Shown here: in pieces, positions 2,841 through 58,500 of the stretch
How the letters are laid out: the number at the start of each line of letters is the position of its first letter
Position numbering within the stretch: position 1 is the first letter of the stretch
NCBI RefSeq assembly: GCF_964213995.1
Contig: NC_135830.1
Location: 19,468,001 to 19,532,000 of the forward strand
Direction: 5' to 3'
From: Mustelus asterias
Lineage: Eukaryota
Length of the DNA: 64,000 nucleotides
Notes under the pieces: generated by a model
Told to the model about the DNA's origin: nothing
Database searches by the model: none
Seen by the model: only the letters and a program-made list of their open reading frames with translations
Translations under genes and position numbers: made by a program

Positions 2841-4035
2841 TCATCACAGAATCACAGAACACTACAGCACAGAATCGGCCCATCGAGTCTGCACCAACGC
2901 ATAATTGGCCCTGACCTGCCCACCTAATCCCACTTGCCAGCACTTGGCCCATAGGTCTGAATGTTATGGTGTGCCAAGTACTCATCCAGGTACTTTTTAA
3001 AGGATGTGAGGCATCCCTCCTTCACCACCCTCCCAGGCAACGCATTCCAGACCATCACCTTCCTCTGGAGTAAAAAGGTTTTTCCTCAAATCCACCCCCA
3101 AACCTCTCACTTTTAACTTGTGTCCCCTCGTAACTGACCCTTCAAGTAAGGGTAACAGCTGCTCCCTAGCCACCCCATCCATGCCCTTGAACACCTCAAT
3201 CAGGTCACCCCTCAGTCTTCTCTGCTCCAGAGAAAACAATAAAAGCCTATCCAACCTCTCTTTATAACTTAAATGTTGCCTCGCAGACAACATCCTGGTG
3301 AATCTCCTCTGCACCCTCTCCAGTGTGTTCACATTCTTCCTATAATGTGGTGACCAGAACTGCACACAGTGCTCCTGCTGTGGCCTCACCAATGTTCTAT
3401 ACAACTCCATCATGACCGCTCTACTTTTGTAATCTATACCCTGACTGATAAAGGTGAGTGTGCCTTTTTCACCACCCTATTAACCCGCCTTTCTGCCTTC
3501 CGAGATCAATGGACAAACACGCCAAGGTCCCTTTCTTCTTCTCACTATCCAGTGTCAGACCTTTCATCGTATACTTCCTTGTCAAATTACTCCTTCCAAA
3601 GTGCATCACCTCACACTTCTCAGGGTTAAATTCCATCTGCCATTTCTCCGTCCTTTTGACCATCTCATCTGTATCTTCCTGTAACCCAAGACACTCAACC
3701 TCACTGTTAACCATCCGGCCAACCTTTGTGTCATCGGCAAACTTACTGATCCTACCCCCCCCCCCCCCCCACGTAGTCATCTATGTCATTATTATATAAG
3801 ACAACCAAAAGGGGGCCAGCACGGATCCCTGTGGTACGCCACTGGTCGCTGGCCTCCAGTCACTAAAGCAGCCGTTTGCCATCACCCTCTGTCTCCGACT
3901 GCTAAGCCAATTATGAATCCACCTTATCAGATCACACTGTATCCCGTGTGCATTTACCTTCTTAATAAGTCTCCCATGTGGGACTTTGTCAAAGGCTTTG
4001 CTGAAATCCATGTAAACTACATCAACCGCGCTACC
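2841..4035 (-). mobile_element. CR1 LINE, 5'-truncated and frameshifted RT region with tail
   Basis: ORFs 3781..4074 ([19 protein letters not shown]), 3469..3780 (FADD) and 2997..3413. Confidence 0.9.
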
Positions 4036-6583: not shown

Positions 6584-7771
6584 TCAGTCACAAAATTCCA
6601 CCACTGGAGTTACCTGTGAACTTCCAGGTGTCTCACCAGGGAGGATGACTGAATAAATCTCCTCCCACATAGAACAAGTGAATGGCCTCTCCCCAGTGTG
6701 AACTTGCTGGTGTGTCAGCAAGTTGGATAACTGAGTGAACCCCTTCCCACACATAGGGCAGGTGAAGAGCCTCTGCCCAGTGTGAACACACTGGTGTCTC
6801 AGCAAGTTGGCAGACTGAGTGAATCCCTTCCCACATTGGGAACAGGTGAACGGCCTCTCCCCAGTGTGAACTCGCTGGTGCGTCAGCAGGTTGGATGACT
6901 GAGTGAATCCCTTCCCACACTCGGAACAGGTGAACGGCCTCTCCCCAGTGTGAACTCGCTGGTGTTTCAACAGGGTGGATGACTGAGTGAATCCCTTCCC
7001 GCACACAGAGCAAGTGAACGGCCTCTCCCCAGTGTGAGCTTTCTGGTGCGTCTGCAGGTGCGACGAACAAGTGAACCCCTTCCCACACTCGGAGCAGGTG
7101 AACGGCCTCTCCCCAGTGTGAAATAAATGGTGAGTCAGCAGGTGGGAGGACTGGGTGAATCCCTTCCCACACTCGGAGCAGGTGTACGGCCTCTCCCCAG
7201 TGTGAATTCGCTGATGGACAGTGAGTTCGGTTAATCGTCTGAACGTTGATGCGCAGTGAGAGCATCTGAATGGTCTCTCATCAGTGTGAACAAGTTGATG
7301 ACGCCTCAGGTCCCAAGAGCTTCTGTAGCACTTCTCACAGTCTGGGCATTTAAAAGGTCTCTCCCCAGTGTGAACTTGCTGGTGTTTCAGCAGGAAGGTT
7401 GACCGGGTGAATCCCTTCCCACACTCAGTGCAGATGAATGGTTTCACCTCAGTGTGAACTCGCTGGTGTGTCAGTAAGGTAGATGAACTAGTAAATCCCT
7501 TCCCACAGTCAGGACAGGTGAATGGCCTCTCCCCAGTGTGATTGCGTCGGTGAATTTCCAGCACTGATGGGTAACTGAATCCTTTCCCACATTCCCCACA
7601 TTTCCATGGTTTCTGCCCAGTGTGATTGCACTTGTGTTTCAACAGGTCGGACGATTGGCGGAATCCTCGTCCACACCCAAAACACATGTACGGTTTCTCA
7701 GCACTGTGAATGTTGCTTTCTCCTTCCATGTTCAAAGGCCAATGATCGTCAGGTCCTGATGAATTGAACAT
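6584..7771 (-). CDS. Tandem C2H2 zinc-finger protein ZNF-1 (12 intact fingers, 13th frameshifted)
   Basis: CxxC-x12-HxxxH repeats with TGERP linkers. Splice acceptor at 7841-7840; first in-frame ATG 7771 (alternative 7729). A 2-nt loss near 6668 shifts the last finger. Confidence 0.92.
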
Positions 7772-7934
7772 CTCTGTCAAGACTTGATTTGATGTTTGAT
7801 TTGAGCTCCCCACCTTCAAATCCTCTACGTCCAAATACCCTGTAAAACGAATTTAAAATAAGAAAAAGCTATCATCAACGGTGCAGGATTGTCATAAAAA
7901 ACACAACTGGTTCACTAATGCCCTTCCTAATGTC

Positions 7935-12611: not shown

Positions 12612-12923
12612 TAGAACAAAGAACAATACAGCACAGGAACAGGCCCTTCGGCCCTCCAAGCCCGTGCCGCTCCCTGGTCCAAACTAGACCATTCTTTTGT
12701 ATCCCTCCATTCCCACTCCGCTCATGTGGCTATCTAGATAAGTCTTAAACGTTCCCAGTGTGTCCGCCTCCACCACCTTGCCTGGCAGCGCATTCCAGGC
12801 CCCCACCTCCCTCTGTGTAAAATATGTCCTTCTGATATCTGTGTTAAACCTCCCCCCCTTCACCTTGAACCTATGACCCCTCGTGAACGTCACCACCGAC
12901 CTGGGGAAAAGCTTCCCACCGTT
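12612..12923 (-). mobile_element. CR1 subfamily B 3' end, module-free form
   Basis: ORF 12684..12896; a single copy of the 23-bp motif AGCCCGTGCCGCTCCCTGGTCCA precedes the tail. Confidence 0.9.
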
Positions 12924-12990
12924 CCCAGAGTTGTCTGTTCTGAATTTTTATCCTGGACTTTGTCATCATTTTCCTTAATTTGTTTTGCAG

Positions 12991-13353
12991 GGTGTTCACA
13001 GGGGAGAATTTGCAGACAAAAAAACTCCAACCAAACATTACATCAAGATTTAACTGAATTATTCGATTCATCAGGATCTGAATTTAATCGACCTTTGAAT
13101 GTGGAAGGAGAAATGTTTCTCTGTTCTGTCTGCGGGAAAAGATTTCAACCATCAGCGTGACTGGAAAAGCACCGAGACACACACATAGCCAAGTGAGAGT
13201 GTTCCATTGAACTGACTGCGGTAAGAGCTTTAACCAGTTACACAGCCTGAAAAAACATTGCAGCATTCACAGCGGGGAGAAACCTCGTGTTCGGCGTGTG
13301 GATAAGGATTCAACTGATTACCCAACCTGGAGAGACACAAGGACACCGGCACC
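12991..13353 (+). pseudogene. Decayed N-terminal spacer and ~3 dead fingers in the ZNF-2 exon upstream of its ATG
   Basis: After the acceptor (12989-12990): [51 protein letters not shown], then VFH*TDCGKSFNQLHSLKKHCSIHSGEK, with stops and frameshifts. Confidence 0.75.
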
Positions 13354-14634
13354 ATGGAGAAACCGTGGAAATGTGGGGACTGTGGGAAGGGATTCAATTA
13401 TCCATCCCGGCTGGAAATCCATCGACGCATTCACACTGGGACCAGCATTACAGAGAGACCGTGGAAATGTGAGGATTGTGGTAAAGGATTCTATTATCCA
13501 TGCCTACTGGAAATCCACCGACGCAGCCACACCGGGGAGAAGCCATTCACCTGTTCTGTGTGTGGGAAGGGATTTATTAAGTCGGCGAGCCTCGTGTCAC
13601 ACCAGCGAATTCACACTGAGGAGAGACCATATCGCTGCACTTACTGTGAAAAGAGGTTTAAGCAGTCATCCACCCTCACTGCACATCAGCGAATTCACAC
13701 TGGGGAGAGACCATTCAGCTGCTCTGTGTGTGGGAAGAGATTCACCCAGTCCTCCATCCTGTTGATACATCAACGCACTCACACTGGGGAAAAGCCGTTC
13801 ACCTGCTCCATATGCGGGAAAGGATTCACTCAGTCATCCGGCCTTTCAACACACCAGCGAGATCACACTGGGGAGAGGCCGTTCACCTGCTCTCTCTGTG
13901 GGAAGGGATTCACTCAGTTATCAGCCCTGCTGACACACCAGAGAAATCACACTGGGGAGAAGCCTTACAGCTGCACGTCCTGTGGAAAGAGGTTCAGGTC
14001 TTCATCCAACCTCAGTGCGCACAAGCGTGTTCACGCAGGGGAGAAACCATTCACCTGCTCCGAGTGTGGGATGGGGTTCACTCAGTCGGCCAACCTGGTG
14101 GTGCACAAGAGAATCCACACTGAGGAGAAGCCATTCAGCTGCACCTCCTGTGGAAAGAGCTTCAGGCAGTTATCCACCCTCACTGCGCACCAACGCACTC
14201 ACACCGGGGAGAGACCGTTCACCTGCTCCGTGTGTGGCAAGGGATTCACTCAGTCAGCCAGCCTCATGTTACACCAGCGAATTCACACTGAGGAGAGGCC
14301 GTTCAGCTGCACTCACTGCGGAAAGAAATTCAGGCAGTCTTCCGACCTCACTTCACACCAGCGAATCCACACTGGGGAGAGGTCATTCATCTGCTCCGTG
14401 TGTGGGAAGGGATTCACCCAGTCGTCCGGTCTCTGGTCACACCAGCGAGTTCACACTGGGGAGAAGCCGTTCGGCTGCACTCACTGTGGAAAGAGTTTCA
14501 GATCTTCATCTGATCTCAACGTACACAAGCGGGTTCACACTGGGGAGAGGCCGTTCACCTGCTCTGTGTGTGGCAAGGGATTCACTCGGTCAGCCAATCT
14601 GCGGACACACCAGAGAGTCCATAAGCGTCTGTAG
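13354..14634 (+). CDS. Tandem C2H2 zinc-finger protein ZNF-2 (15 fingers)
   Basis: Uninterrupted 426-aa ORF, ACCATGG start, TGEKP/TGERP linkers. Confidence 0.95.
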
Positions 14635-16023: not shown

Positions 16024-16362
16024 CAAAAAAAACAAGCCCGAAGGCTCTGTGTTTCGATGTGAGGAACATTTGTAATAGGGTGGATGAATTAGCTGCGCAG
16101 ACAGTCATTAACGGATATGATGTAATTGGGATCACGGAGACCTGGCTCCAGGGTGACCAGGGATGGGAACTCGACATCCAGGGCTATTCAATATTCAGGA
16201 AAGATAGATGGAAAGGGGATTGGGAGGGTAGCATCACTGGTTAAAAAGGAGATTAATGCAATAGTAAGGAAGGGCATTAGCCCGGGCGATGTGGAATCTT
16301 AATGGGTGGAGCTGTGTAACACCAAAGGACATAAAAAGCTAGTGGGAGCAGTGTACAGACCA

Positions 16363-16964
16363 CAAAGAACAAAAAGAACAATACAGCACAGGAACAGGCC
16401 CTTCGGCCCTCCAAGCCCGCGCCGCTCCCAGGTCCAGGATTGAATCCTGAATCCAGGATCCCCGCCCAATTTTCCAGCCTATCTACATCCTAATATCCTA
16501 TCCACCGAGCTGTCCCTCACAGCTACGATGCTTTGTTCATCACAACCTATTAACTCACCCCCACCCCCCCCATTCCAGACCATGTGATCTCCAGGGAGAG
16601 GCGAAAACCCAGAGTGAAAACCCCAGGGCCAATATGGGGAAAAAAAAATCTGGGAAATTCCTCTCCGACCCCCTGAGGCGATCGAAACGAGTCCAGGAGA
16701 TCACACTGGCCCCGATCGGAAAATGCTTCCCAACCCTATTCATTTCCATTTCCACGAACACCATATGAATTCCCTGCCCCCGAGACAGGTTCCCAACTAT
16801 CCGCAGTCTCGCTCTGTACTGGCACCAGCAAGATGATCATAGAATGAAGCCTTGAAACGAGAAGCAAAGAACAATTAGCCCGCGCCGCTCCCTGGTCCAA
16901 ACTAGACCCCTCTTTTGTATCCCTCCATTCCCACTCCGTTCATATAGCTGTCGAGATAAGTCTT
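16363..16964 (-). mobile_element. CR1 subfamily B 3' end carrying a 440-bp extra module
   Basis: Tail at 16363; 23-bp direct repeats 16414-16436 and 16877-16899 flank the insert 16437-16876. Confidence 0.88.
16583..16712 (+). ncRNA. Candidate structured RNA (multi-stem, pseudoknot) inside the CR1 module
   Basis: Nested complementary pairs TGTGATCTCC/GGAGATCACA, GGAGAGG/CCTCTCC, CCCAGA/TCTGGG, CCCCA/TGGGG; loop GGGCCA pairs with TGGCCC at 16707-16712. Strand inferred only from A-rich linkers. Confidence 0.5.
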
Positions 16965-17689
16965 TAAAGCTGTTGTAGTGAGGCTGAGGATGGCATCAAA
17001 CTGGAAATTAGAGATGCGTGCAGTAGGGTACAGCAGTTACCATGGGTGACTTCAATCTGCATATTGATTGGGTTCACCAAACTGTTAGCAATGCGATGGA
17101 GGAGGATTTCTTAGAATGTATAAGGAATGGTTTTCTCAACCAAGATGTTGAGGAACCATCTAGAGAGTAGACCATCCTAGACTGGGTATTGTATAACGAG
17201 AGAGGATTAATTAGCAACCTTGTGGTGATCCTTTGGGGAGGAGTGACCATAATATGGTAGAATTCTTCATGAAGGTGGAGAGTGACACAGTTAAGTCTGA
17301 GACGAGGGTCCTGAACTTGAGGAAAGCTAACTTTGATGATTTGAGACATGCATTAGCTAGGATAAGATGGCAAAGGATACTTAAGGGGTTGACAGTGGAT
17401 AAACAATGGCAGACATTTAAAGAACACACAGATGAACTTCAACAAACTGTACATCCCTGTTCTGGTGTAAAAGTGTATTGGGGAAGAGTAAAACGGCTAA
17501 CAAGGGAAATCAGGGATAGTGTTAAAGCCAAAGAGGAGGTATATAAACTGGCCAGAAAAAGCAGCAAACCTGAGGACTGGGAAAAATTTAAAATCCGGCA
17601 GAGGAGGGCAAAGGGTTTATTTCGGAAGGGGAAAATAGAATACGAGAATAAGCTTGCAGAAAAAACTGACTGCAAAAGCTTCTATAGAT

Positions 17690-28128: not shown

Positions 28129-29022
28129 TCAGTCCTGGCTGTGATTAACAGCAGCAACAACAGCAGAATCCAACTCCTGCAACTTGTGAACCTTCTGGTG
28201 CGTCTGCAGGGTGGATGAACGGGAGAATCCCTTCCCACACACGGAGCAGATGAATGGTCCCTCCCTGGTGTGACTGCGCTGGTGTTTCAGCCGGAGACAC
28301 TGCTGAGTGAACCCCTTCCCGCACACGGAGCAGGTGAACGGCCTCTCCCCGGTGTGGACCCGCTGGTGAATCAGCAGATCCATTTTGCCTTTGAAGCTCT
28401 TCTCGCAGTCTGAACATTTGAACGGTCTGGCGTCAGAGTGGACGCGTTGGTGCGAGGTGAGGTGGGCGGACTGAGTGAATCCCTTCCCACACTGGGAGCA
28501 GGTGAACGGCCTCACGCCGGTGTGAATGCGCTTGTGCCTCAGCAGGGTGGATGACTGAGTGAATCCCTTCCCGCACACACAGCAGGTGAAGGGCCTCTCC
28601 CCGGTGTGAACCCGCTGGTGGTCCAACATTTTGCATAACTGAGTGAACGCAGTCCCGCACTCGGGGCAGGTGAACGGTTTCTCCCCGGTGTGAACTCGCT
28701 GGTGTAACAGAAAGCTGGACAACTGAGTGAATCTCTTCCCACACTCAGTGCAGGCGTACGGCCTCTCCCCGGTGTGAACCCGCTGGTGCGTCAGCAGATT
28801 TTCTTTTCTTTTGAAGCTCTTCTCACAGTCGGAACATTTAAAAGGTCTCGTGTCAGAGTGGACAAGCTGGTGTTCAGTGAGGTGCGTTAGTCGGGTGAAT
28901 CTCTTCCCACACTCGGTGCAGGTGAACGGCCTCTCTCCAGTGTGACTGCGCCGATGAATTTCCAGCACAGACGGGGATATGAACCCCTTCCCACAGTCCC
29001 CACATTTCCACGGTTTCTCCAT
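28129..29022 (-). CDS. Tandem C2H2 zinc-finger protein ZNF-3 (10 fingers)
   Basis: ORF 28129..29082; ACCATGGAGAAACCG start at 29022 as in ZNF-2; acceptor at 29359-29358; short C-terminal extension after the last finger. Confidence 0.93.
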   Translation of the reverse strand: MEKPWKCGDCGKGFISPSVLEIHRRSHTGERPFTCTECGKRFTRLTHLTEHQLVHSDTRPFKCSDCEKSFKRKENLLTHQRVHTGERPYACTECGKRFTQLSSFLLHQRVHTGEKPFTCPECGTAFTQLCKMLDHQRVHTGERPFTCCVCGKGFTQSSTLLRHKRIHTGVRPFTCSQCGKGFTQSAHLTSHQRVHSDARPFKCSDCEKSFKGKMDLLIHQRVHTGERPFTCSVCGKGFTQQCLRLKHQRSHTREGPFICSVCGKGFSRSSTLQTHQKVHKLQELDSAVVAAVNHSQD

Positions 29023-29357
29023 GGTGCTGGTTGTCGCTCCAAGTTGGATGATCAGCTGAAGCCTCGTCCACAAATAGAACACATGTACAGTTTCTCCTCA
29101 CTGTGAATGGTGTGGTGTGCAACTGGTTAGAGCTCCTTCCACGGTCAGTTCAATGGAATACTCTCATTCGGGTGTGTGTGTGTGTCACGGTGCTCTTCCA
29201 GCCACACTGATGATTGAAATTGTTTCCCACAGACAGAACAGACAAACATTTCTCCTTCCACATTCAAAGGTTGATGATATTCAGCTCCTGATGAATCGAC
29301 TGACTGTATCAGATCTTAATGTGATGTTTGATTTAAGATTCCCATCTGTCTCATCCC
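29023..29357 (-). pseudogene. Decayed spacer and dead fingers upstream of the ZNF-3 ATG
   Basis: NQTSH*DLIQSVDSSGAEYHQPLNVEGEMFVCSVCGKQFQSSVWLEEHRDTH, then VFH*TD; homologous to 12991-13353. Confidence 0.7.
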
Positions 29358-31085: not shown

Positions 31086-31779
31086 ATCCTATTCAGTTAA
31101 GTCACTTTGTGCTTTGATGTGAAACTTAGGGCAACAAATTGAGGACCAAATTATCCCGAAATCTCAATGCAAACACTGTCCATTATCTGCTGAGGTTCAT
31201 GAATCCATGTCCATCCAGTGCTCTGTTTCACCTCTGCCCTCCCTGATCAGCTCTCTCTCATTGTCGAACTTCCTCTGCCTCTGATGAAGACTGTATTTTA
31301 GCCATGTTTAATATTATTCTGTTACTTCTGCTGACGGTGTCTAAATGACGTTTCCACTGCTGCCCATTTCCCAACCATGTGCTACTAGTTTGCCAAATTT
31401 ATCATCCCACGTCAGGAATCATTCATCGTCAGGAATTGTTTTTCCTTGTGCCGGCTCCACAAATTACCAGAATCATTCAGCTCAATTTCGCAATCTGTTT
31501 TTGTGGGTTCTCTCATACTCTCTTTTTTCTGTTTTAAATCAATTTCACAGGGTTTTAGAAGAGGAGGATTTGCAGTTGGAAACGGAAACCAAACATGATA
31601 TTGGAACCTGATGGAGTTGGCCAGTTTATCGTAACTTAAATATAATTCTATTTTGAATATAGAAGACAAAAGCACTTTTCACAGTGGAGAGAAACTGTAC
31701 TGTTCTGTGTTCTGTGCATGGACAAGACTTCAACCAATCATCGGGCCCTTTGAAACATAATTGCAATCACAACAGGGAG

Positions 31780-32616
31780 ATGGCATGGAAATGTGAGGAC
31801 TGTGGGAAGAGATTCGATTTCCCCTCCCAGCTGGAGATCCATCGACGCATTCACACTGGGGAGAGGCCGTTCACCTGCTCTGTGTGTGGGAAAGGATTCA
31901 ATAGGCCATCTCACTTAGCAATACACCAGCGAATTCACACTGGGGAGAAACCGTTCACCTGCTCCCAGTGCGGGAAGGGATTCACTCACTCCACCAATCT
32001 GCTGAGACACGAGAGAATTCACACTGGGGAGAGGCCATTCACCTGCTCTGTGTGTGGGAAGAGATTTACCAACCAATCTCACCTGCTGACACACCAGCGA
32101 ATTCACACTGGGGAGAGGCCATTCACCTGCTCCCCGTGTGGGAAGGGTTTTACTAACCAATCTCACCTGCTGATACACCAGCGGGTTCACACTGGGGAGA
32201 AGCCGTTCACCTGCTCTGTGTGTGGGAAGGGATTCACTCAGTCATCCACTCTGCTGATACACCAGCGGGTTCACACTGGGGAGAGGCCATTCACCTGCTC
32301 CCAGTGTGGGAAGGGATTCACTTGCTCAGTCAATCTGTTGAGACACCAGCCAAGTCACACTGGGAAGAGGCAGTTCACTTGTTCCCAGTGTGGAAAGGGA
32401 TTCAATCAGTCATCCCATCTGCTGGCACACCAGCGTGTTCACACTGGGGAGAGGCCGTTCATCTGCTCCCAATGTGGAAAGGGATTCACTCAGTCATCCC
32501 ATCTGCGGACACACCAGCGAATTCACACTGGGGAGAGGCCGTTCACCTGTTCCCAGTGTGGGAAGGGATTTGTCACCTCAGCCAATCTGCTGAGACACCA
32601 GCAAGTTCACAAGTAA
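31780..32616 (+). CDS. Tandem C2H2 zinc-finger protein ZNF-4 (10 fingers)
   Basis: ORF 31684..32616; first in-frame ATG at 31780 (GAGATGG); acceptor at 31549-31550. Confidence 0.92.
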
Positions 32617-32620
32617 CTAT

Positions 32621-44434: not shown

Positions 44435-44727
44435 TGTAACTCCAGACCAGGTGACAGGTTCCCTTCCCTGATGGACATCAGTGAACCTTTTTATACGACA
44501 ATCTGACAGTTTACATAATCATTTGTTCCTTGTGATGACCCCACAAATGACTAGGTTCATTCAGCTCAATTTCACAATCTCTCCCGCTCCCTTTTTCTGT
44601 CTTGAATCAATTTTGCAGGTTGTTAGAAGGGGACATCTGCTGTTGGGAAACTGAAACCAAACATCACGCCAGGGTCTGCCAGAGTCGCCCCATTTATCGT
44701 GACCTGAACATCATCAGAGTTTTGAAC

Positions 44728-45513
44728 ATGGAAGGGGAAAGCACCTTCCATCATGAGGAGAAACTGTACATGTGTTCTGTGTGTGGGCGAGGCTTCAGAC
44801 AATCATCTGGCCTGTCCAGACACAAGCGCAGCCATGCCGGGGAGAAACCCTGGAAATGTGAGGACTGTGGGAAGAGATTCAACTACCCATCGGAGCTGGA
44901 AACTCATCGACGCAGTCACACCGGGGAGAGACCATTCATTTGCTCCATGTGTGGGAAGGGATTCACTCAGTCATCGAGTCTGCTGAAACACCTGCGAGAT
45001 CACACTGGGAAGAGGCCATTCACCTGCTCTGCGTGCGGGAAGGGATTCACTCAGTTATCCAACCTGTCGGAGCACCAGCGAGTTCACACCGGGGAGAGAC
45101 CGTTCACCTGCTCCCAGTGTGGAAAAGCATTCACTCAGTCATCCCATCTGCTGTCACACCAGCGAGTTCACACTGAGGAGAGACCTTTTAGATGCGCAAT
45201 CTGTGAGAGGTGCTATAAAAGTTCTGGGGAACTCACGTCCCACCAGCAGGTCCACACTGATGAGAGACCGTTCAGATGCCCTCACTGTGGGACTGGGTTC
45301 AGGCGATCAGAGCAACTCACTGTACACCAGCGCACTCACACTGGGGAGAGACCGTTCCCCTGCTCCAAATGTGGGAAGGGATTCACTCAGTTATCCAGCC
45401 TGCTGAATCACCAGCGAATTCACACTGGGGAGAGGCCGTTCACCTGCTCTGAGTGTGGGAAGGGATTCACTACCTCCTCCACTCTGCTGAATCACCAGCG
45501 AGTTCACAAGTAA
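44728..45513 (+). CDS. Tandem C2H2 zinc-finger protein ZNF-5 (9 fingers)
   Basis: ORF 44602..45513; acceptor 44617-44618; AACATGG start at 44728; AATAAA near 45638. Confidence 0.93.
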
Positions 45514-45884
45514 CAACAGTGATTGGATTTTGACATCAATCGCATTCAGGACAGAACCATGTTCATTGGAATCTGATTCTCCTGATGTCAATAAGCTCCA
45601 GTCCAGTTGTGATGGTGAATATACTGGACGAAAACCAAATAAACAAGCTTTGCATTAAACAGTCTGTTGAACCTTTTTAATATGTCTAACACAAAGTAAT
45701 CCTCTTGAAGGGCTGTCCCTCTCCCCTGTCTCCTCCATCCTCACCCCCAACAACAAGTGTGAGGAGCTCATGGAGCTTCTTTATGACTAAGATGAGCTGC
45801 CTCTGCTGTTGCCCTCCATTCCACGAGTTCACTTGCCCAGACTGTCTCTAAAGATCTTCCCAGCCCTATTTTGAACCCATATCC

Positions 45885-48546: not shown

Positions 48547-49968
48547 ATGAAAGGCAGGACACGAGGAAGTTCTGTGGAACAAAGGGACCTTGTTTGTCCA
48601 CCGACCTCTGAAAGCAGAAGGCATGTTAGTCGGGTGGTGAAAAAGGCATATAGACACTTACCTTTATCAATCGAGGCATAGATCACAAAAGCAGGGAAGC
48701 CATGTTGGAGTTGCATAGAACTTTGGTGAGGCCACAGTTGGAGTACAGTGTGCAGTTTTGGTCGCCATATTATTGGAAGGATGTGATTGCAGTGGTGGGG
48801 GTGCAGAGGAGATTCATCAGGATGCTGCCTGGGATCGAACATTGAAGTTATGAAGAGAGGTTGGATAGGCTTGGGTTGTTTTCGTTGGAGCAGAGAATCA
48901 TAGAATCATAGAAACCCTACAGTGCAGAAAGAGGCCATTCGGCCCATCGAGTCTGCACCGACCACAATCCCACCCAGGCCCTATCCCCATATCCCAACAT
49001 ATTTACTCGCTAATCCCTCTAACCTATGCATCCCGGGACACTAAGGGGCAATTTAGCATGGCCAATTAACCTAACCCGCACATCTTTGGACTGTGGGAGG
49101 AAACCGGAGCACCCGGAGGAAACCCACGCAGACACAGGAAGAATGTGCAAACTCCACACAGACAGTGACCCAAGCCGGGAATCGAACCCAGGTCCCTGGA
49201 GCTGTGAAGCAGCAGTGCTAACCACTGTGCTACCGTGCTGCCCCTAGAAGACTGAGGGGTGACCTGATTGGGGTGTACAAGATTGAGAGACATAGACAGA
49301 GTGGATAAGGAGCAGCTGTTCCCTTTAGTTGAAGGATCAGTCATGAGGGGACATAGGTTCAAGGTGAGGGACAGGAGGTTCAGGGGGGATGTGAGGAAAA
49401 ACCTTTTTACCCCAGAGGGTGGTGACGGTCTGGAGAGCGTTGCCTGGGAGAGTGGTGGAGGCGGGTTGCCTCACATCCTTTAAAAAGTACCTGGCACTTT
49501 AAAAAGCACCTGACACATCATCACATTCAGGCTATGGGCCAAATGCTGGCAGATGGGATTAGGTGGGAATTCAGGTGTTTCTAATGTGTTGGTGCAGACT
49601 CCATAAGACCATAAGACATAGGAGCGGAAGTAAGGCCATTCGGCCCATCGAGTCCACTCCACCATTCAATCATGGTTGATTTCAACTCCATTTACCCGCT
49701 CTCTCCCCATAGCCCTTAATTCCTCGAGAAATCAAGAATTTATCAATTTCTGTCTTGAAGACGCTCAACGTCTCGGCCTCCACAGCCCTCTGTGGCAATG
49801 AATTCCACAGACCCACCACTCTCTGGCTGAAGAAATTTCTCCTCAAGTCTGTTCTAAAGTGACTCCCTTTTATTCTAAGGCTGTGCCCCCGCGTCCTAGT
49901 CTCCCCTGCTAATGGAAACAACTTCCCTACGTCCATCCTATCTAAGCCGTTCATTATCTTGTAAGTCT

Positions 49969-50694
49969 CAAAGAACAAAGAAGAACAAAGAACAATACAG
50001 CACAGGAACAAGCCCTTCGGCCCTCCAAGCCCGCGCCGCTCCCCGGTCCAGGATTGAATCCTGAATCCAGGATCCCCGCCCAATTTTCCAGCCTATCTAC
50101 ATACCAATATCCTATCCACCGAGCTGTCCCTCACAGCTACGATGCTTTGTTCATTACAACCTATTAACTCACCCCCACCCCCCTATTCCAGACCATGTGA
50201 TCTCCAGGGAGAGGCGAAAACCCAGAGTGAAAAACCCCAGGGCCAATATGGGGAAAAAAAAAATCTGGGAAATTCCTCTCCGACCCCCTGAGGCGATCGA
50301 AACGAGTCCAGGAGATCACAATGGCCCTGATCGGAAAATGCTTCCCAACCCTAGTCATTTCCACTTCCATGAACACCATATGAATTCCCTGCCCCCGAGA
50401 CAGGTTCCCAACTATCCGCAGTCTCGCTCTGTACTGGCACCAGCAAGATGATCATAGAATGAAGCCTTGAAACGAGAAACAAGGAACAATTAGCCCGCGC
50501 CGCTCCCTGGTCCAAACTAGACCACTCTTTTGTATCCCTCTATTCCCACTCCGGTCATATAGCTGTCTAGATAAGTCTTAAACGTTCCCAGTGTGTCCGC
50601 CTCCACCACCTTGCCCGGCAACACATTCCAGGCCCCCACGACCCTCTGTGTGAAATATGTCCTTCTGATATCTGTGTTAAACCTCCCCCCCTTC
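49969..50694 (-). mobile_element. CR1 subfamily B 3' end carrying the ~440-bp module (second copy)
   Basis: Direct repeats 50028-50050 and 50492-50514 flank the insert 50051-50491. Confidence 0.9.
50196..50329 (+). ncRNA. Candidate structured RNA in the CR1 module (second copy)
   Basis: All stems seen at 16583-16712 are intact; differences are A-run lengths and bases next to the pseudoknot strand. Confidence 0.5.
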
Positions 50695-50774
50695 AAAGAA
50701 CAAAGAACAAAGAACAGTACAGCACAGGAAACAGGCCTTCGGCCCTCCAAGCCTGTGCCGCTCCTTGGTCTAAC

Positions 50775-53699
50775 TAGACCAATCGTTTGTATCCCTCCAT
50801 TCCCAGGCTGCTCATGTGACCATCCAGGTAAGTCTTAAACGATGTCAGCGTGCCTGCCTCCACCACCCTACTTGGCAGCGCATTTCAGGCCCCCACCACC
50901 CTCTGTGTAAAAAAACGTCCCTCTGATGTCTGAGTTATACTTCGCCCCTCTCAGCTTGAGCCCGTGACCCCTCGTGATCGTCACCTCCGACCTGGGAAAA
51001 AGCTTCCCACTGTTCACCCTATCTATACCCTTCATAATCTTGTATACCTCTATTAAATCTCCCCTCATTCTCCGTCTTTCCAAGGAGAACAACCCCAGTC
51101 TACCCAATCTCTCCTCATAGCTAAGACCCTCCATACCAGGCAACATCCTGGTAAACCTTCTCTGCACTCTCTCCAATGCCTCCACGTCCTTCTGGTAGTG
51201 CGGCGATCAGAACTGGACGCAGTACTCCAAATGCGGCCTAACCAGCGTTCTATACAGCTGCATCATCAGACTCCAGCTTTTATACTCTATACCCCGTCCT
51301 ATAAAGGCAAGCATACCATATGCCTTCTTCACCACCTTCTCCACCTGTGTTGCCACCTTCAAGGATTTGTGGACTTGCACACCTAGGTCCCTCTGTGTTT
51401 CTATACTCCTGATGACTCTGCCATTTATTGCATAACTCCTCCCTACATTATTTCTTCCAAAATGCATCACTTCGCATTTATCCGGATTAAATTCCATCTG
51501 CCACCTCTCCGCCCAATTTTCCAGCCTATCTATATCCTGCTGTATTGCCCGACAATGCTCTTCGCTATCCGCAATTCCAGCCATCTTTGTGTCATCCGCA
51601 AACTTGCTGATTACACCAGTTACACCTTCTTCCAAATCATTTATATATATCACAAATAGCAGAGGTCCCAGTACAGAGCCCTGCGGAACACCACTGGTCA
51701 CAGACCTCCAGCCGGAAAAAGACCCTTCGACCACTACCCTCTGTCTCCTATGGCCAAGCCAGTTCTCCACCCATCGAGCCACTTCTCCTTGTATCCCATG
51801 AGCCTTAACCTTCTTAACCAACCTGCCATGTGGGACTTTGTCAAATGCCTTACTGAAATCCATATAGACGACATCCACGGCCCTTCCTTCATCAACCGTT
51901 TTTGTCACTTCCTCAAAAAACTCCACCAAATTTGTAAGGCACGACCTCCCTCTTACAAAACCATGCTGTCTGTCACTAATGAGATTGTTCCGTTCTAAAT
52001 GCACATACATCCTGTCTCTAAGAATCCTCTCCAACAACTTCCCTACCACGGACGTCAAGCTCACCGGCCTATAATTTCCTGGGTTATCCCTGCTACCCTT
52101 CTTAAACAACGGGACCACATTCGCTATCCTCCAATCCTCAGGGACCTCACCCGTGTCCAAAGAAGCGACAAAGATTTCCGTCAGAGGCCCAGCAATTTCC
52201 TCTCTCGTCTCCCTGAGCAGTCGAGGTTAGATGCCATCAGGCCCTGGGGCTTTGTCAGTTTTAATGTTCCCTAAAAAACCTAACACTTCCTCTCTCGTAA
52301 TGGAGATTTTCTCTAACGGGTCAACACCTCCCTCCGAGACACTCCCGGTTAACACGCCCCTCTCCTTCGTGAATACCGATGCAAAGTATTCATTTAGGAT
52401 CTCCCCTATTCCCTTGGGTTCTAAGCATAATTCCCCTCCTTTGTCCCTGAGAGGTCCGATTTTCTCCCTGACAACTCTTTTGTTCCTAACGTATGAATAG
52501 AATGCCTTAGGATTCTCCTTAATCCTGCCTGCCAAGAACATCTCGTGCCCTCTTTTTGCCCTTCTAACTCCCCGTTTGAGATCTTTCCTACTCTCTCTGT
52601 ATTCCTCCAGAGCTCCATCTGTTTTCAGTTGCCTGGACTTAACGTACGCCTCCCTTTTCATTTTAATCAGATCCTCAATTTCCCTGGTTATCCACGGCTC
52701 TCGAATCCTACCTTTCCTATCTTTCCTTTTTACAGGCACATGCCTATCCTGCAGCCTTATCAATAGTTCCTTAAAAGACTCCCACATGCCAGACGCGGAC
52801 TTACCCTCGAACATCCTCTCCCAATCAACATCCACCAATTCCTGCCTAATCCGGCTATAGTCAGCCTTCCCCCAATTTAGCACCCTGCCCGTAGGACAGC
52901 ACTCATCCTTGTCCATTACTATCCTAAAGTTAACAGAGTTGTGGTCACTATTTGCCACATGTTCCCCTACCGAAACTTTGACGACCTGACCGGGCTCATT
53001 TCCCAGAACTAGGTCCAGTATAGCCCCCTCTCTAGTCGGGCTATCTACATACTGTTCCAAAGAACCTTCCAGTATGCATTTTACAAATTCCTCCCCGTCC
53101 GGTCCCCCAGCTCTAAGCACTTTCCAGTCTGTGCCAGGGAAATTAAAGTCCCCCACTACAACAACCCTATGTTTTCTGCACCTATCCAGAATCTCCTGAC
53201 ATATCCTTTCCTCCACTTCCCGTGGGCTGTTGGGTGGTCTGTAGTACACCCCCAGCATAGTGACTGCACCCTTCCTGTTTCTGAGTTCCACCCACAGCGA
53301 CTCAGTACATGACCCCTCTAAGTTGTCTACCCTCTGCACCGCGGTAATATGCTCCTTAACTAATATCGCTACTCCCCCACCTTTTTTAGCCCCTCCTCTG
53401 TCTCGCCTAAAACACTGATACCCCGGAATATTCAGCTGCCAGTCCTGTCCTTCTTTTAACCAAGTTTCCGTCACCGCAACCACATCCAAATTCCGCACAA
53501 GCATTAAGGCCCTAAGTTCGTCTGTTTTACCCGTTACACTCCTCGCATTGAAGCAGATGCACTCCAGACCTCCAGGCCCAGTCAGGTCCTCCTCCTCCAG
53601 AGTGCTCCTCTTCTTAGCTAGCCTTGCCCTGGCCCCCAGCTCGACCCCAGCCTCAGTATTTACTGACCTCCTGTTTTGTTCCCCACCCCCCTGCCACAC
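50775..53699 (-). pseudogene. CR1 ORF2 (APE endonuclease + reverse transcriptase), two nonsense changes and one frameshift
   Basis: ORFs 52227..53699, 51207..52160 and 50868..51185 are in the same frame. Confidence 0.93.
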
Positions 53700-54727
53700 T
53701 AGTTTAAATCCTGCCGAAACACTCGAGCAAAACTCCCAGCCAGGATATTTGCTCCCTTCCAGTTAAGGTGTAACCCATCCTTTCTGTACAGTTGCCATCC
53801 TGACTTGAAGATTTCCCAGTTATCTATGAATTTAAAACCCTCCCTCTTGCACCAGTCCTTTAGCCACGCGTTCAACTGTAGAATCTCCCTGTTCCGAGCC
53901 TCACTTGCACTAGGCACCGGGAGCAGTCCAGAGATTGCTACACTGGAGGTCTTACTTTTTAGCCTAGCACCCAACTCCCTGAATTTCTCTCGTATGACCC
54001 CCCTGCTCTTCCTACCTACATCATTTCCCCCAATGTGTACAATCACATCCGTTTGACTACCTTCCTTTTTAAATATGCTTCCTACCCTCTCGGAGACATC
54101 CAGTACCCCGGCACCAGGGAGGCAGACTACCATCCTGGATTCTCGTTCAGTCCCACAGAAGCGCCTGTCCGTGCCTCTAACTATTGCGTCCCCCACAACT
54201 ATCGCTCTCCTAAACCCCTTCTTTCCCTTCCGGACCCCTGAGCCTGTCCCCGTGGAGGCGATCTGGTCCTCGTGGCTTACCCCTGGAGGGTCATCCCCCT
54301 CCACAGAATCCAAAACAATATACCTATTGTGGAGGGGGACAACCACAGGGGATCTCTCCACAGACTGCTCACTCCCTTCCCTTCTCCCATCTGTTGCCCA
54401 TCCCTTTCTCTTATGGGAGACTGCTACTGGGGTGCTTTCTGGCACATCACCCTTCTGACTATTACCCCTCCTAACCGTGACCCACGTGTCTTCCTTCCGA
54501 GACCCTGGTGTCACTACCTGACTATAACTTTTATCTATGACTCTCTCATTTTCCCTAACTAAACTGAGTTCATCAAGCCTCAGCTCCAGCTCCCTTACAC
54601 GATCCTTCAGGAGATGCAGTTCCACACATCTGGCACAGATATGGACTTCCGGGAGGCAAGTTGTCTCCAGGAACTCCCACATCCCACACCGAATGCAGTA
54701 TACTGGCCTCCCACTCATACCAGCCAT
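53699..54727 (-). CDS. CR1 ORF1 protein: CxxC..CxxC motif, leucine zipper, SGNH/GDSL esterase-like domain
   Basis: CIRC...CARC, heptad leucines LKDRVRELELRLDEL, blocks VVGDAIVRG, HIGGND and DGLH; ATG at 54727. Confidence 0.88.
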   Translation of the reverse strand: MAGMSGRPVYCIRCGMWEFLETTCLPEVHICARCVELHLLKDRVRELELRLDELSLVRENERVIDKSYSQVVTPGSRKEDTWVTVRRGNSQKGDVPESTPVAVSHKRKGWATDGRREGSEQSVERSPVVVPLHNRYIVLDSVEGDDPPGVSHEDQIASTGTGSGVRKGKKGFRRAIVVGDAIVRGTDRRFCGTERESRMVVCLPGAGVLDVSERVGSIFKKEGSQTDVIVHIGGNDVGRKSRGVIREKFRELGARLKSKTSSVAISGLLPVPSASEARNREILQLNAWLKDWCKREGFKFIDNWEIFKSGWQLYRKDGLHLNWKGANILAGSFARVFRQDLN

Positions 54728-55013
54728 GTCCTTTTTAGTTTTGGGGATAAAACAAAAAGGGGGTGTAACCGAAGAAAAACAAACAAACAACCTTCCTCGC
54801 CGAAGCCCTGTGAGTCAAAGCCCTTTTAGCTCTCACTCTGTCCCCTGCTCACTCCACTGCCCGCTAACGACGCTGCCCGCTCAAAGGTGCGGCCTACTTT
54901 TAAACCCTCCAAAATCTTCCCAGGCTGCTGCTGGGCCTATTTCCTGTTTAGAAAAAAAAAAACCTCCGATTTTTTTCACTAATTGAACTGAAAAATAATT
55001 AAATAAATTAATT

Positions 55014-55169
55014 ACTCTACTGCAGCCCGAGCAGCACTCCCACAGTGAGACACCAACTGTCACACTCTACTGCAGCCCGAGCAGCACTCCCACAGTGAGA
55101 CACCAACTGTCACACTCTACTGCAGCCCGAGCAGCACTCCCACAGTGAGACACCAACTGTCACACTCTA
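55014..55169 (-). repeat. Three perfect 50-bp tandem monomers at the CR1 5' end
   Basis: ACTCTACTGCAGCCCGAGCAGCACTCCCACAGTGAGACACCAACTGTCAC at 55014, 55064 and 55114. Confidence 0.95.
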
Positions 55170-55812
55170 TCAGATCTCCCCTCAACCTCCTAAACTCCAA
55201 TGAATACAATCCCACGATCCTCAGACGTTCATCGTATGTCAGGCCTACCATTCCTGGGATCATCCGTGTGAATCTCCGCTGGACCCGCTCCAGTGCCAGT
55301 ATGTCCTTCCTGAGGTGTGGGGCCCAAAATTGCTCACAGTACTCGATGGGCCGAAGGGCCTCTTCTGCATCGTATGATTCTATGATTCTTTACTTGTGAC
55401 ACTGATAAATAAACTGAAATTTAAGTTTTTGGTTATCTGTTCAAATATCACCCTCTGTGACTCGGTGTCAAATTTCCCATTCTGAAACTCCTCTGAAGCA
55501 CCTCGGGATGTTTTATTACATTCAACCTTTTCTATAAATACAAGTTGTTACATTTTCACAGCAACCAGTTTGAGCACAGTAAGATTCCACAAACAGCAAT
55601 CAAACCCGTGACCAGCTTCTTTGGTGATGTTAGTCACCAAACGTTAGTCAAGGGGGTTGGAGTATAAGAGGGAAATCTTGCTGCAACTATACAAGGTACG
55701 GGTGAGACCACATCTGGAGCACTGTGAGCAGTTTTGGTCCCCTTGTTTAAGGAAAGACTGTATATCATTGAAGGCTGTTCAAAGAAGGTTCTCCAAGATG
55801 ATCCCCGGTATG

Positions 55813-56335
55813 GGGGTGGCACAGTGGTTAGCGCTGCTGCCTCAGCGCTCGGGACCCGGGTTCGATTTCTGGCTCGGGGTCACTGTCTGTGTGGAGTCTG
55901 CACATTCTCCTCGTGTCTGCGTGGGTTTCCTCCGGGTGCTCCGGTTTCCTCTCAGTCCAAAGATGTGCAGGTTAGGTTGATTGGCCATGCTAAATTGTCC
56001 CTTAGTGTCCAAAGATGTGCAGGTTAGGTGGATTGGCCATGCTAAATTGTCCCTTAGTGTCCAAAGATGTGCAGGTTAGGTTGATTGGCCATGCTAAATT
56101 GTCCCTTAGTGTCCAAAGATGTGCAGGTTAGGTTGATTGGCCATGCTAAATTGTCCCTTAGTGTCCAAAGATGTGCAGGTTAGGTTGATTGGCCATGCTA
56201 AATTGCCACTTAGTGTCAGGGGGACTAGTAGGGTAAATATGTGGGGTTATGGGGATAGGGCCTGGGTGGGATTGTGGTCGATGCAGACTCGATAGGCCAA
56301 ATGGCTTCCTTCTGCAATGTAGGGATTCTATGATA
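55813..56335 (+). mobile_element. V-SINE with internal 52-bp tandem repeat x5
   Basis: Units start at 55955, 56007, 56059, 56111 and 56163. Confidence 0.9.
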
Positions 56336-56420
56336 TTATGATGGAGGTATTAACGTTAAACGGGTTGGGACTGTATTCATTGGAATTTAGTAGAATGAGA
56401 AGTTATCGAATTGGAACATA

Positions 56421-56766
56421 TCATAGAATCATAGAAACCCGACAGTGCAGGAAGAGGCCATTCGGCCCATCGAGTCTGCACCGACCACAATCCCACCCAG
56501 GCCCTATCCCCATATCCCAACATATTTACTCGCTAATCCCTCTAACATATGCATCACGGGACACTAAGGGGCAATTTAGCATGGCCAATTAACTTAACCC
56601 GCACATCTTTGGACTGTGGGAGGAAACCGGAGCACCCGGAGGAAACCCACGCAGACACAGGAAGAATGTGCAAACTCCACACAGACAGTGACCCAAGCCG
56701 GGAATCGAACCCAGGTCCCTGGAGCTGTGAAGCAGCAGTGCTAACCACTGTGCTACCGTGCCGCCC
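56421..56766 (-). mobile_element. HE1 V-SINE at the duplication junction (probably chimeric)
   Basis: Left flank and GCAGGAAG match the 58587 copy; the body and right flank match the 48895 copy. Confidence 0.85.
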
Positions 56767-58134
56767 CTAGAAGACTGAGGGGTGACCTGATTGGGGTGTA
56801 CAAGATTGAGAGACATAGACAGAGTGGATATGGAGCAGCTGTTCCCTTTAGTTGAAGGATCAGTCATGAGGGGACATAGGTTCAAGGTGAGGGACAGGAG
56901 GTTCAGGGGGGATGTGAGGAAAAACCTTTTTACCCCAGAGGGTGGTGACGGTCTGGAGAGCGTTGCCTGGGAGAGTGGTGGAGGCGGGTTGCCTCACATC
57001 CTTTAAAAAGTACCTGGCACTTTAAAAAGCACCTGACACATCATCACATTCAGGCTATGGGCCAAATGCTGGCAGATGGGATTAGGTGGGAATTCAGGTG
57101 TTTCTAATGTGTTGGTGCAGACTCCATAAGACCATAAGACATAGGAGCGGAAGTAAGGCCATTCGACCCGAGTCCACTCCACCATTCAATCATGGTTGAT
57201 TTCAACTCCATTTACCCGCTCTCTCCCCATAGCCCTTAATTCCTCGAGAAATCAAGAATTTATCAATTTCTGTCTTGAAGACGCTCAACGTCTCGGCCTC
57301 CACAGCCCTCTGTGGCAATGAGTTCCACAGACCCACCACTCTCTGGCTGAAGAAATTTCTCCTCATCTCTGTTCTAAAGTGACTCCCTTTTATTCTAAGG
57401 CTGTGCCCCCGCGTCCTAGTCTCCCCTGCTAATGGAAACAACTTCCCTACGTCCATCCTATCTAAGCCGTTCATTATCTTGTAAGTCTCTATCAGATCTC
57501 CCTTCAACCTCCTAAACTCCAATGAATATAATCCCACGATCCTCAGACGTTCATCGTATGTCAGGCCTACCATTCCCGGGATCATCCGTGTGAATCTCCG
57601 CTGGACCCGCTCCAGTGCCAGTATGTCCTTCCTGAGGTGTGGGGCCCAAAATTGCTCACAGTACTCGATGGGCCGAAGGGCCTCTTCTGCATCGTATGAT
57701 TCTATGATTCTTTACTTGTGACACTAATAAATAAACTGAAATTTAAGTTTTTGGTTATCTGTTCAAATATCACCCTCTGTGACTCGGTGTCAAATTTCCC
57801 ATTCTGAAACTCCTCTGAAGCACCTCGGGATGTTTTATTACATTCAACCTTTTCTATAAATACAAGTTGTTACATTTTCACAGCAACCAGTTTGAGCACA
57901 GTAAGATTCCACAAACAGCAATCAAACCCGTGACCAGCTTCTTTGGTGATGTTAGTCACCAAACGTTAGTCAAGGGGGTTGGAGTATAAGAGGGAAATCT
58001 TGCTGCAACTATACAAGGTACAGGTGAGACCACATCTGGAGCACTGTGAGCAGTTTTGGTCCCCTTGTTTAAGGAAAGACTGTATATCATTGAAGGCTGT
58101 TCAATGAAGGTTCTCCAAGATGATCCCCGGTATG

Positions 58135-58500
58135 GGGGTGGCACAGTGGTTAGCGCTGCTGCCTCAGCGCTCGGGACCCGGGTTCGATTTCTGGCTCGGG
58201 GTCACTGTCTGTGTGGAGTCTGCACATTCTCCTCGTGTCTGCGTGGGTTTCCTCCGGGTGCTCCGGTTTCCTCTCAGTCCAAAGATGTGCAGGTTAGGTT
58301 GATTGGCCGTGCTAAATTGTCCCTTAGTGTCCAAAGATGTGCAGGTTAGGTTGATTGGCCATGCTAAATTGCCACTTAGTGTCAGGGGGACTAGTAGGGT
58401 AAATATGTGGGGTTATGGGGATAGGGCCTGGGTGGGATTGTGGTCGATGCAGACTCGATAGGCCAAATGGCTTCCTTCTTCAATGTAGGGATTCTATGAT
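58135..58500 (+). mobile_element. V-SINE with 52-bp repeat x2
   Basis: Paralogue of 55813-56335. Confidence 0.9.

Follow-up and report, generated by a model that had tools for sequence, protein, structure and literature searches.

The locus described here raises the question of why an insert in the 3' end of one CR1 LINE carries a short piece of CR1 reverse-transcriptase coding sequence in the sense of the element. Within the window, by which is meant the whole 64,000-nt stretch of Mustelus asterias DNA that was analysed, at 19468001-19532000 of its contig, this insert (the module) lies in a copy of family CR1-B, and the piece (the slot) is 30 nt of ORF2 that resembles a second family, CR1-A. 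The elements are taken to be CR1 from their ORF1 and ORF2 translations, recognised by eye, and from the label given in the original prediction; the host family B is ~85% identical to family A. It had been proposed that the slot might act as an antisense guide against CR1 mRNA, might promote template jumps as cDNA, or might be a neutral scar. Genome-wide figures given below are pattern counts in the 3.68-Gb assembly and are to be read as lower bounds.

A split copy of ORF2

The match from which the question arises is real, as had been claimed. Positions 16462-16491 agree with CR1-A ORF2 at 29 of 30 places in the window comparison, with a single mismatch, where 6e-10 matches of this quality would be expected by chance against families A and B on both strands. 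The second module of the window was correctly said to match ORF2 at 24 of 24 positions (50076-50099), and over its full 30-nt slot the agreement is 27/30; outside these three places, the best remaining one in the window differs at 10 positions. On the minus strand the LINE frame gives QQDIDRLENWAERWQMEFNPDK, and the slot runs in the identical sense, which bears out the predicted shared orientation, both being minus-strand sense. The second module and the CR1-A copy had been treated as separate places, and both matches are real, but the two are parts of one chimeric element and not independent. The CR1-A copy of the window, which had been described as full-length, has stops within ORF2 (boundaries 52226/52227 and 51207). 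The junction of CR1-A with the module is found at no fewer than 348 places genome-wide, and 12 of the 12 that were fetched run into A at 98% or more and have varied 5' ends. Since so many copies share the junction and differ in their 5' ends, family A must have captured the B 3' end with the module and then retrotransposed with it.

The length of 30 nt attributed to the homology describes a clean part that does exist, but the homology is longer, as 16435-16444 also agrees with the host CR1-B ORF2 at 10 of 10 positions and in register. Reading on from the slot, three matching bases are followed by 14 unrelated ones and then by these 10, so that the ORF2 copy covers 57 nt in register (16435-16491), with its middle 14 nt swapped for local inverted and direct repeats. 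The replacement has the same length as the ORF2 stretch that was lost, and in it and its neighbours one 6-mer is seen as X, as the reverse complement of X, and again as X, while on the far side of the slot (16492-16503) a stutter repeats the slot's own first bases. The last two of the 10 B-type bases (16435-16436) double as part of the terminal 3' end, a 2-nt microhomology that is weak taken alone. The first small hairpin is thus made of sequence from the end of the ORF2 piece itself, the outcome expected of fold-back or slippage. The slot had been placed between two small hairpins beside a large fold on the plus strand; the arrangement is predicted as described, but it is on the minus (sense) strand that the fold has the greater stability. 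Read in the direction of the transcript, which is the minus strand, the slot stands 3' of the large fold, ~100-130 nt before the RNA 3' end. Coordinates of these features are collected in Table 1.

Table 1. Features of the module, its host copy and the CR1-A chimera in the window (strand "." where none applies)
Feature	Positions	Strand	Basis
CR1-B 3' terminus with small stem-loop and tail of (TTCTTTG)n type; the element's only intact 3' end	16362..16436	-	94% to 12613-12681; hairpin predicted
23-nt direct repeat, downstream copy, pairs with 16877-16899	16414..16436	.	22/23
Second ORF2 piece (FNP codons)	16435..16444	-	10/10 to host CR1-B, exact register
14 nt of inverted/direct repeats (first small hairpin) and 3 nt matching ORF2	16445..16461	-	length equal to replaced stretch; 6-mer X/reverse complement of X/X
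30-nt slot, sense copy of CR1 ORF2 (codons around DIDRLENWA), family-A/C states	16462..16491	-	29/30 to CR1-A; 26/30 to host CR1-B
Stutter of short motifs from the slot's 5' edge	16492..16503	-	read directly in the sequence
Second small predicted hairpin, approximate limits	16505..16527	.	fold prediction
Large fold, two U-rich internal loops (double-ENE-like)	16575..16711	-	z -3.74; no Rfam family; at least 10,740 core matches
Insert 5' part, tail-like remnant at its start, ~30 nt with 3' stem-loop missing	16712..16876	-	comparison with module-free end
CR1-B ORF2 end, stop codon 16902-16904, upstream 23-nt repeat; copy 5'-truncated here	16877..16967	-	sequence comparison
Module-free CR1-B 3' end (sister form without insert)	12613..12924	-	sequence comparison; at least 12,658 such ends genome-wide
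CR1-B 3' piece with module, fused behind CR1-A tail	49975..50690	-	junction at 348 or more exact matches
Slot of second module, majority drifted variant	50076..50105	-	24/24, then 27/30 to CR1-A
CR1-A part of chimera (ORF1, stop-interrupted ORF2), 5' limit approximate	50693..54990	-	sequence comparison, ORFs
Cognate ORF2 site in CR1-A	51509..51538	-	sequence comparison with slot

The module as an extended CR1-B 3' end

The 440-nt insert that forms the module spans 16437-16876, is bounded by 23-nt direct repeats and begins ~25 nt past the CR1-B ORF2 stop codon. Set against a module-free B end, its downstream end is complete, and its upstream end lacks ~30 nt with the terminal stem-loop and keeps a tail-like remnant. 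The assembly holds at least 10,624 matches to the slot flanks and at least 10,740 to the core of the fold, beside no fewer than 12,658 module-free B 3' ends and 26,294 or more A- or B-type ORF2 sites. The expectation that priming depends on the downstream end draws on what is known of stringent-type LINEs (PMC5135761, in excerpt). With no 3' stem-loop at the upstream end, priming would need the downstream one, and all that lies between would consequently be inherited as a block.

Probable donor of the slot and proposed template switching

The slot agrees with ORF2 of families A and C at 29 of 30 positions and with that of its host B at 26 of 30, and at the CpG site older outgroup families carry the A-like GCGG state. 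A tree built from 92 ORF2 3' regions places the B copies with a module inside the B clade (100/100), on the shortest branches and mostly in one subclade, with modest support (84/78); in the same tree the slot variant closest to ORF2 stands at the base, and the drifted variants arise later. A/B recombinant ORF2 sequences exist (L018, L095 and L120, the last with a short A-type patch within B), of which L095 and L120 came from a pattern that selects for such recombinants. Judging from these comparisons, the slot was probably taken in trans from an A-type or an A/B recombinant RNA. A large donor subfamily joining an A-type slot to B-type FNP was considered and rejected, as only 51 scattered copies have this combination, mostly A/C point variants with a few A/B recombinants. 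Genome searches found neither a founder locus nor a donor of the fold.

The best explanation, to which we give a probability of roughly 0.8, is that the slot is a neutral scar of the template switching that built the extended 3' end of CR1-B. This was among the readings originally proposed, and it fits the register, the debris at the junctions, the fixed sequence and the lack of deletion-jump products. In the direction of reverse transcription, the enzyme would begin by copying ~70 nt of the B 3' end, cross at the 2-nt microhomology into ORF2 and copy 10 nt of B type, and, after fold-back or stutter for 14 nt, copy 30 nt of A type. Following a second stutter, it would continue into the fold-bearing RNA and then into the end of a B mRNA. 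All of this may have happened in one multi-jump event; alternatively, a short chimeric insertion may have come first and been read through afterwards. Fixation would come with the loss of the 3' stem-loop from the upstream end, after which priming from the downstream end would place the slot in each daughter, useful or not.

Several features of the unit are those of LINE template-switch chimeras. The B 3' end, the B 10-mer, the A 30-mer, the fold stretch and the B ORF2 end all lie in sense; a LINE 3' terminus stands at the end of the unit and 5' truncation is variable; and the 2-nt microhomology is accompanied by the inverted and repeated 6-mer and by stutter on both sides. Template switching is also seen elsewhere in the family, in long jumps (L158, L206, L363), in the A/B recombinants named above and in the chimera of A with the module. 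By the features tested, the slot appears to belong with these chimeras, and its mechanism would be an ordinary one. Double jumps giving tripartite retroelements have been described for LINEs (PMC2104539, in part), and the slot can be grouped with the template-switch chimeras of a further paper as well (PMC2718515, in part). As in the LINE template-jump chimeras covered in the available portion of PMC2104539, different RNAs are fused in one orientation before a LINE 3' end; unlike them, the fusion here is found in a lineage that bears ORF2, is amplifying and numbers more than 10,000 copies, with a very short internal ORF2 stretch, a rearranged middle and no founder target-site duplications seen.

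Other known systems resemble parts of this structure. In internally deleted or bipartite non-autonomous LINEs and SIDEs, a LINE 3' end is likewise fused with a remote portion of its own or a related LINE, but those elements keep their 5' and 3' ends and lose the middle, whereas here an internal coding stretch has been duplicated into the 3' UTR of a full-length element (PMC5786205, PMC3414825, PMC6740152, as excerpted). At the 5' junctions of ZfL2-2/CR1-2_DR, extra nucleotides copied from flanking sequence are reported (PMC4245944, in excerpt), and these extras share with short-range template-switch mutations the presence of short nearby copies, direct or inverted, at the junction; in the latter, as here, a hairpin is made by the switch itself (PMC7954356, PMC8794818, in excerpt). 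In the excerpted reports the extras come from the DNA flanking new inserts, whereas the debris of the module, which went on to be amplified, repeats sequence from the two ends of the ORF2 piece (PMC4245944, PMC7954356, PMC8794818). As a scar, the slot would be a minor thing in itself, of value as a record of how template switching between two sister families rebuilt the 3' end of a LINE.

Constancy and drift of the slot

A slot that varied like a spacer had been raised as a possibility, and the copies do not bear this out. The slot is present in 148 of 149 sampled copies (55 of them chosen by slot flanks and 29 by likeness to the window copy), in 30 of the 30 chosen by fold core alone, and as 30 nt of ORF2 origin in 100 of 100 among the slot-flank matches listed. 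A genome-wide search for the module anchor with some other continuation gave one locus only, which is a 1-nt deletion. Nor, within this one genome, does the slot track the local ORF2, since it agrees with host B at 26/30, and in derived lineages at 27/30 with A and 24/30 with B. The 29/30 variant of the window is in the minority, with 2,452 exact copies against the at least 10,624 slot-flank matches. Among 85 sampled copies, 19 have the window variant, 8 are intermediate, 57 are doubly changed and 1 has a further private change, so that most stand at the 27/30 and 24/30 just given.

Outside the assembly, two metagenome scans for a homologous module gave 0 matches and then 15 without CR1 homology, which were taken as chance. 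In the four sequencing runs covered, out of 23 listed, the module is near-unchanged, with 0 other letters over the slot region in two of the four; mean depth in these runs is about 4-210 over module and tail, alongside family A and module-free B. These reads resemble traces of DNA from the same species or from one very close to it, and give no cross-species evidence.

Such constancy could mean that the scar has been kept for a function on the sense strand, either as a cis element spacing the ENE-like fold from the 3' end or as a decoy that soaks up antisense small RNAs or proteins of the host aimed at this conserved ORF2 stretch. We regard this as unlikely, though the least so of the alternatives. 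It accords with the lack of any amplified slot-less lineage: deletions of 10-40 nt in the slot region are limited to 16 scattered copies, none of them amplified, unlike a deletion of 110 nt towards the 5' side of the insert, within its 5' part, that did amplify and is common to five sampled copies (L075, L166, L187, L189, L201), all with fold and slot kept. However, there have been few master lineages, which makes the missing deletion lineage weak evidence. At the level of lineages, the 30-nt slot has 2 changes, against 3 for the 137-nt fold and 8 for the 165-nt 5' part, a share for the slot that is not significant in either direction (p 0.32), and private non-CpG changes in the slot (8/2380) are at background level; with copies still about 97-98% identical in so young a family, there is little power to detect selection. 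The two changes in the slot fall together at one edge and leave a 24-nt core without any, but these two fixed changes lower the match to ORF2 and disrupt the sole predicted local pairing of the slot's 5' edge. That the module-bearing lineage is the youngest B branch, and that family A captured the module separately, would also suit a useful element, yet the success of the lineage may be credited to the fold or to chance.

The neighbouring fold

The large fold beside the slot is predicted at -66.4 kcal/mol on the minus (sense) strand (z -3.74; 1 of 200 shuffles folds as well) and at -51.2 kcal/mol on the plus strand (z -3.18). Minimum-energy and centroid predictions agree on two U-rich internal loops in one sense-strand stem, in which C-G stems close both loops from above, while an A-U pair closes the upper one from below. 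The last 620 nt contain only two A4 runs, no canonical polyadenylation hexamer occurs in the last 800 nt, and the genomic tail is a microsatellite. All copies of the fold that were found are near-identical. No Rfam family was matched (best E 0.52), 15 matches from a genome search for older relatives were all young module copies, and a descriptor scan of 1.12 Mb gave no other double U-loop. Derivation of the fold from a decayed ORF2 C-terminus was rejected, as a DNA profile found the slot only and a protein profile reached 0.3 bits, where each of the best 25 among 499 shuffles scored at least 1.0. Other short matches of the insert to families A and B, including one of 12 nt in antisense, have E 0.18 or worse.

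In its predicted shape the fold may be called ENE-like. It shares with the double-domain ENE of plant and fungal transposons (TWIFB1; Evade/Copia93), so far as the available parts of the sources describe it, the two U-rich loops in one stem, the place in a sense-strand 3' UTR, and the C-G pairs that close the upper side of each loop; it differs in its host, a vertebrate-type CR1 LINE, in a microsatellite tail rather than poly(A), and in being known as a predicted shape only (PMC7583470, PMC12501189). An ENE-type element in a vertebrate LINE was not found in the literature searched, a scope beyond which most subscription papers lie. The adjacent fold is a better target for further work than the slot.

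Fold and slot might also be read together, as a 3' cassette in which a double-ENE-like clamp is joined to a captured piece of the rival family's reverse-transcriptase coding sequence, the piece acting as a selected decoy or targeting element in competition between LINE families, and which proved useful enough for the rival to capture it whole in turn. This seems improbable, somewhat more so than a kept cis element. If a guide or a decoy of any kind were real, retrotransposon families would be acting on one another through captured sequence, for which no example was found in the literature searched.

A possible remnant of the insertion target

A neutral origin at the level of DNA can be conceived as well, in which a short B 3' end inserted in or beside an integrated A-type ORF2 fragment and a B element upstream later read through all of it. 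CR1 copies are dense and often nested or abutting, and the chimera of A with the module could itself come from such read-through. On the other hand, the ORF2 piece is only 57 nt long, has stutter on both sides, mixes A and B states and lies in the same sense as the element, and no source locus was found with the module anchor and a different continuation, the one match being the 1-nt deletion noted above. A target remnant is for these reasons a poor candidate, a shade less probable again than the cassette.

The slot as a proposed antisense guide

The idea that an antisense transcript of the module would use the slot to guide it to CR1 mRNA, and to that of the competitor, family A, in preference, draws on the better fit of the slot to A than to B, on predicted antisense-slot duplexes of -53.2 kcal/mol with A and -44.7 kcal/mol with B, and on the predicted hairpins that flank the slot on the plus strand. 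The same calculation, however, makes the slot's own module the best partner of all (-59.5 kcal/mol), and the carrier would consequently be hit first. In addition, antisense RNA of this kind could already come from the 26,294 or more ORF2 sites in the genome, and the large fold is better formed on the sense strand. The slot shows no variability of the spacer kind, its majority form has dropped to 27/30, and the module is also present in family A, in no fewer than 348 copies. No large ORF was found beside ORF1 and ORF2 as a candidate effector. In guide and spacer systems, the slot varies between constant flanks, covaries with its target and spares self; the slot of the module does none of these. 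The DNA thus lends the proposal no support, as the slot is invariant in length and origin, does not follow the host ORF2 and has changed between lineages away from ORF2, and on these sequences a guide function is very unlikely.

Template jumps and truncation at the ORF2 site

If cDNA of the slot annealed to the upstream ORF2 site and promoted template jumps, deletion products running from hairpin plus slot into ORF2 of A or B would be found; a genome-wide pattern for them found 0, against the at least 10,624 modules, which gives an upper 95% bound of about 0.03%. The single match to this pattern was rejected, as it is a copy whose truncation point falls within the slot and which has landed in an old CR1. 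The reverse pattern found one tandem duplication genome-wide (L092:353-2749), whose junction falls in 15 nt of identity between slot and B ORF2; both of its halves share the sublineage deletion. Long jumps at unrelated sites account for 2 of 94 sampled 5' junctions (L158, L206), a further long internal jump is seen among 15 loci (L363), and a short ORF2 patch comparable to the slot was seen at 0 of the 94. The module lineage may be viewed as a natural test, in which 15-24 nt of perfect internal homology and more than 10,000 retrotranspositions have given one duplication and not a single deletion jump that could be detected.

The idea that the slot causes truncation at the ORF2 site arose from 5' ends that seemed to cluster there, and was rejected on the equal module-free control. 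Truncation at the cognate site is seen in 10 of 49 copies with the module and 10 of 49 without (p 1.0), in 17 of 67 when all module-bearing copies are taken (p 0.66), and in 2 of 18 of family A (p 0.34), counts that leave out three chimeras and, of 90 module-free loci, the 2 that could not be aligned. Although the duplication in L092 indicates that the homology is usable, and module-bearing 5' ends at first seemed clustered near the site, the absence of deletion products and the equal clustering in module-free B make it scarcely credible that slot cDNA promotes jumps, as had been suggested, or early termination.

Among the 5' ends compared, six B copies with and without the module (L024, L196, L200, L235, L239, L330) have a common 5' end at 3238 of the L155 reference, and three of the six have similar flanks, which suggests a composite with another repeat or a preferred junction. 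Three module-bearing copies (L334, L335, L349) have a common 5' end at 3150 of the same reference.

Surroundings in the window

The window is dense with SINEs and CR1 LINEs. Just past the 5' end of the CR1-A chimera, tandem copies of a ~45-nt unit occupy 55014-55169, and the chimera is flanked by recent local duplications of ~99% identity (48897-49969 with 56420-57489, and 55165-56061 with 57487-58383). Arrays with an 84-nt period are found at 6615-7868, 13260-14621, 28182-29112, 31522-32618 and 44644-45587, and the part of them that was read, at 13130-13400, resembles C2H2 zinc-finger coding sequence.
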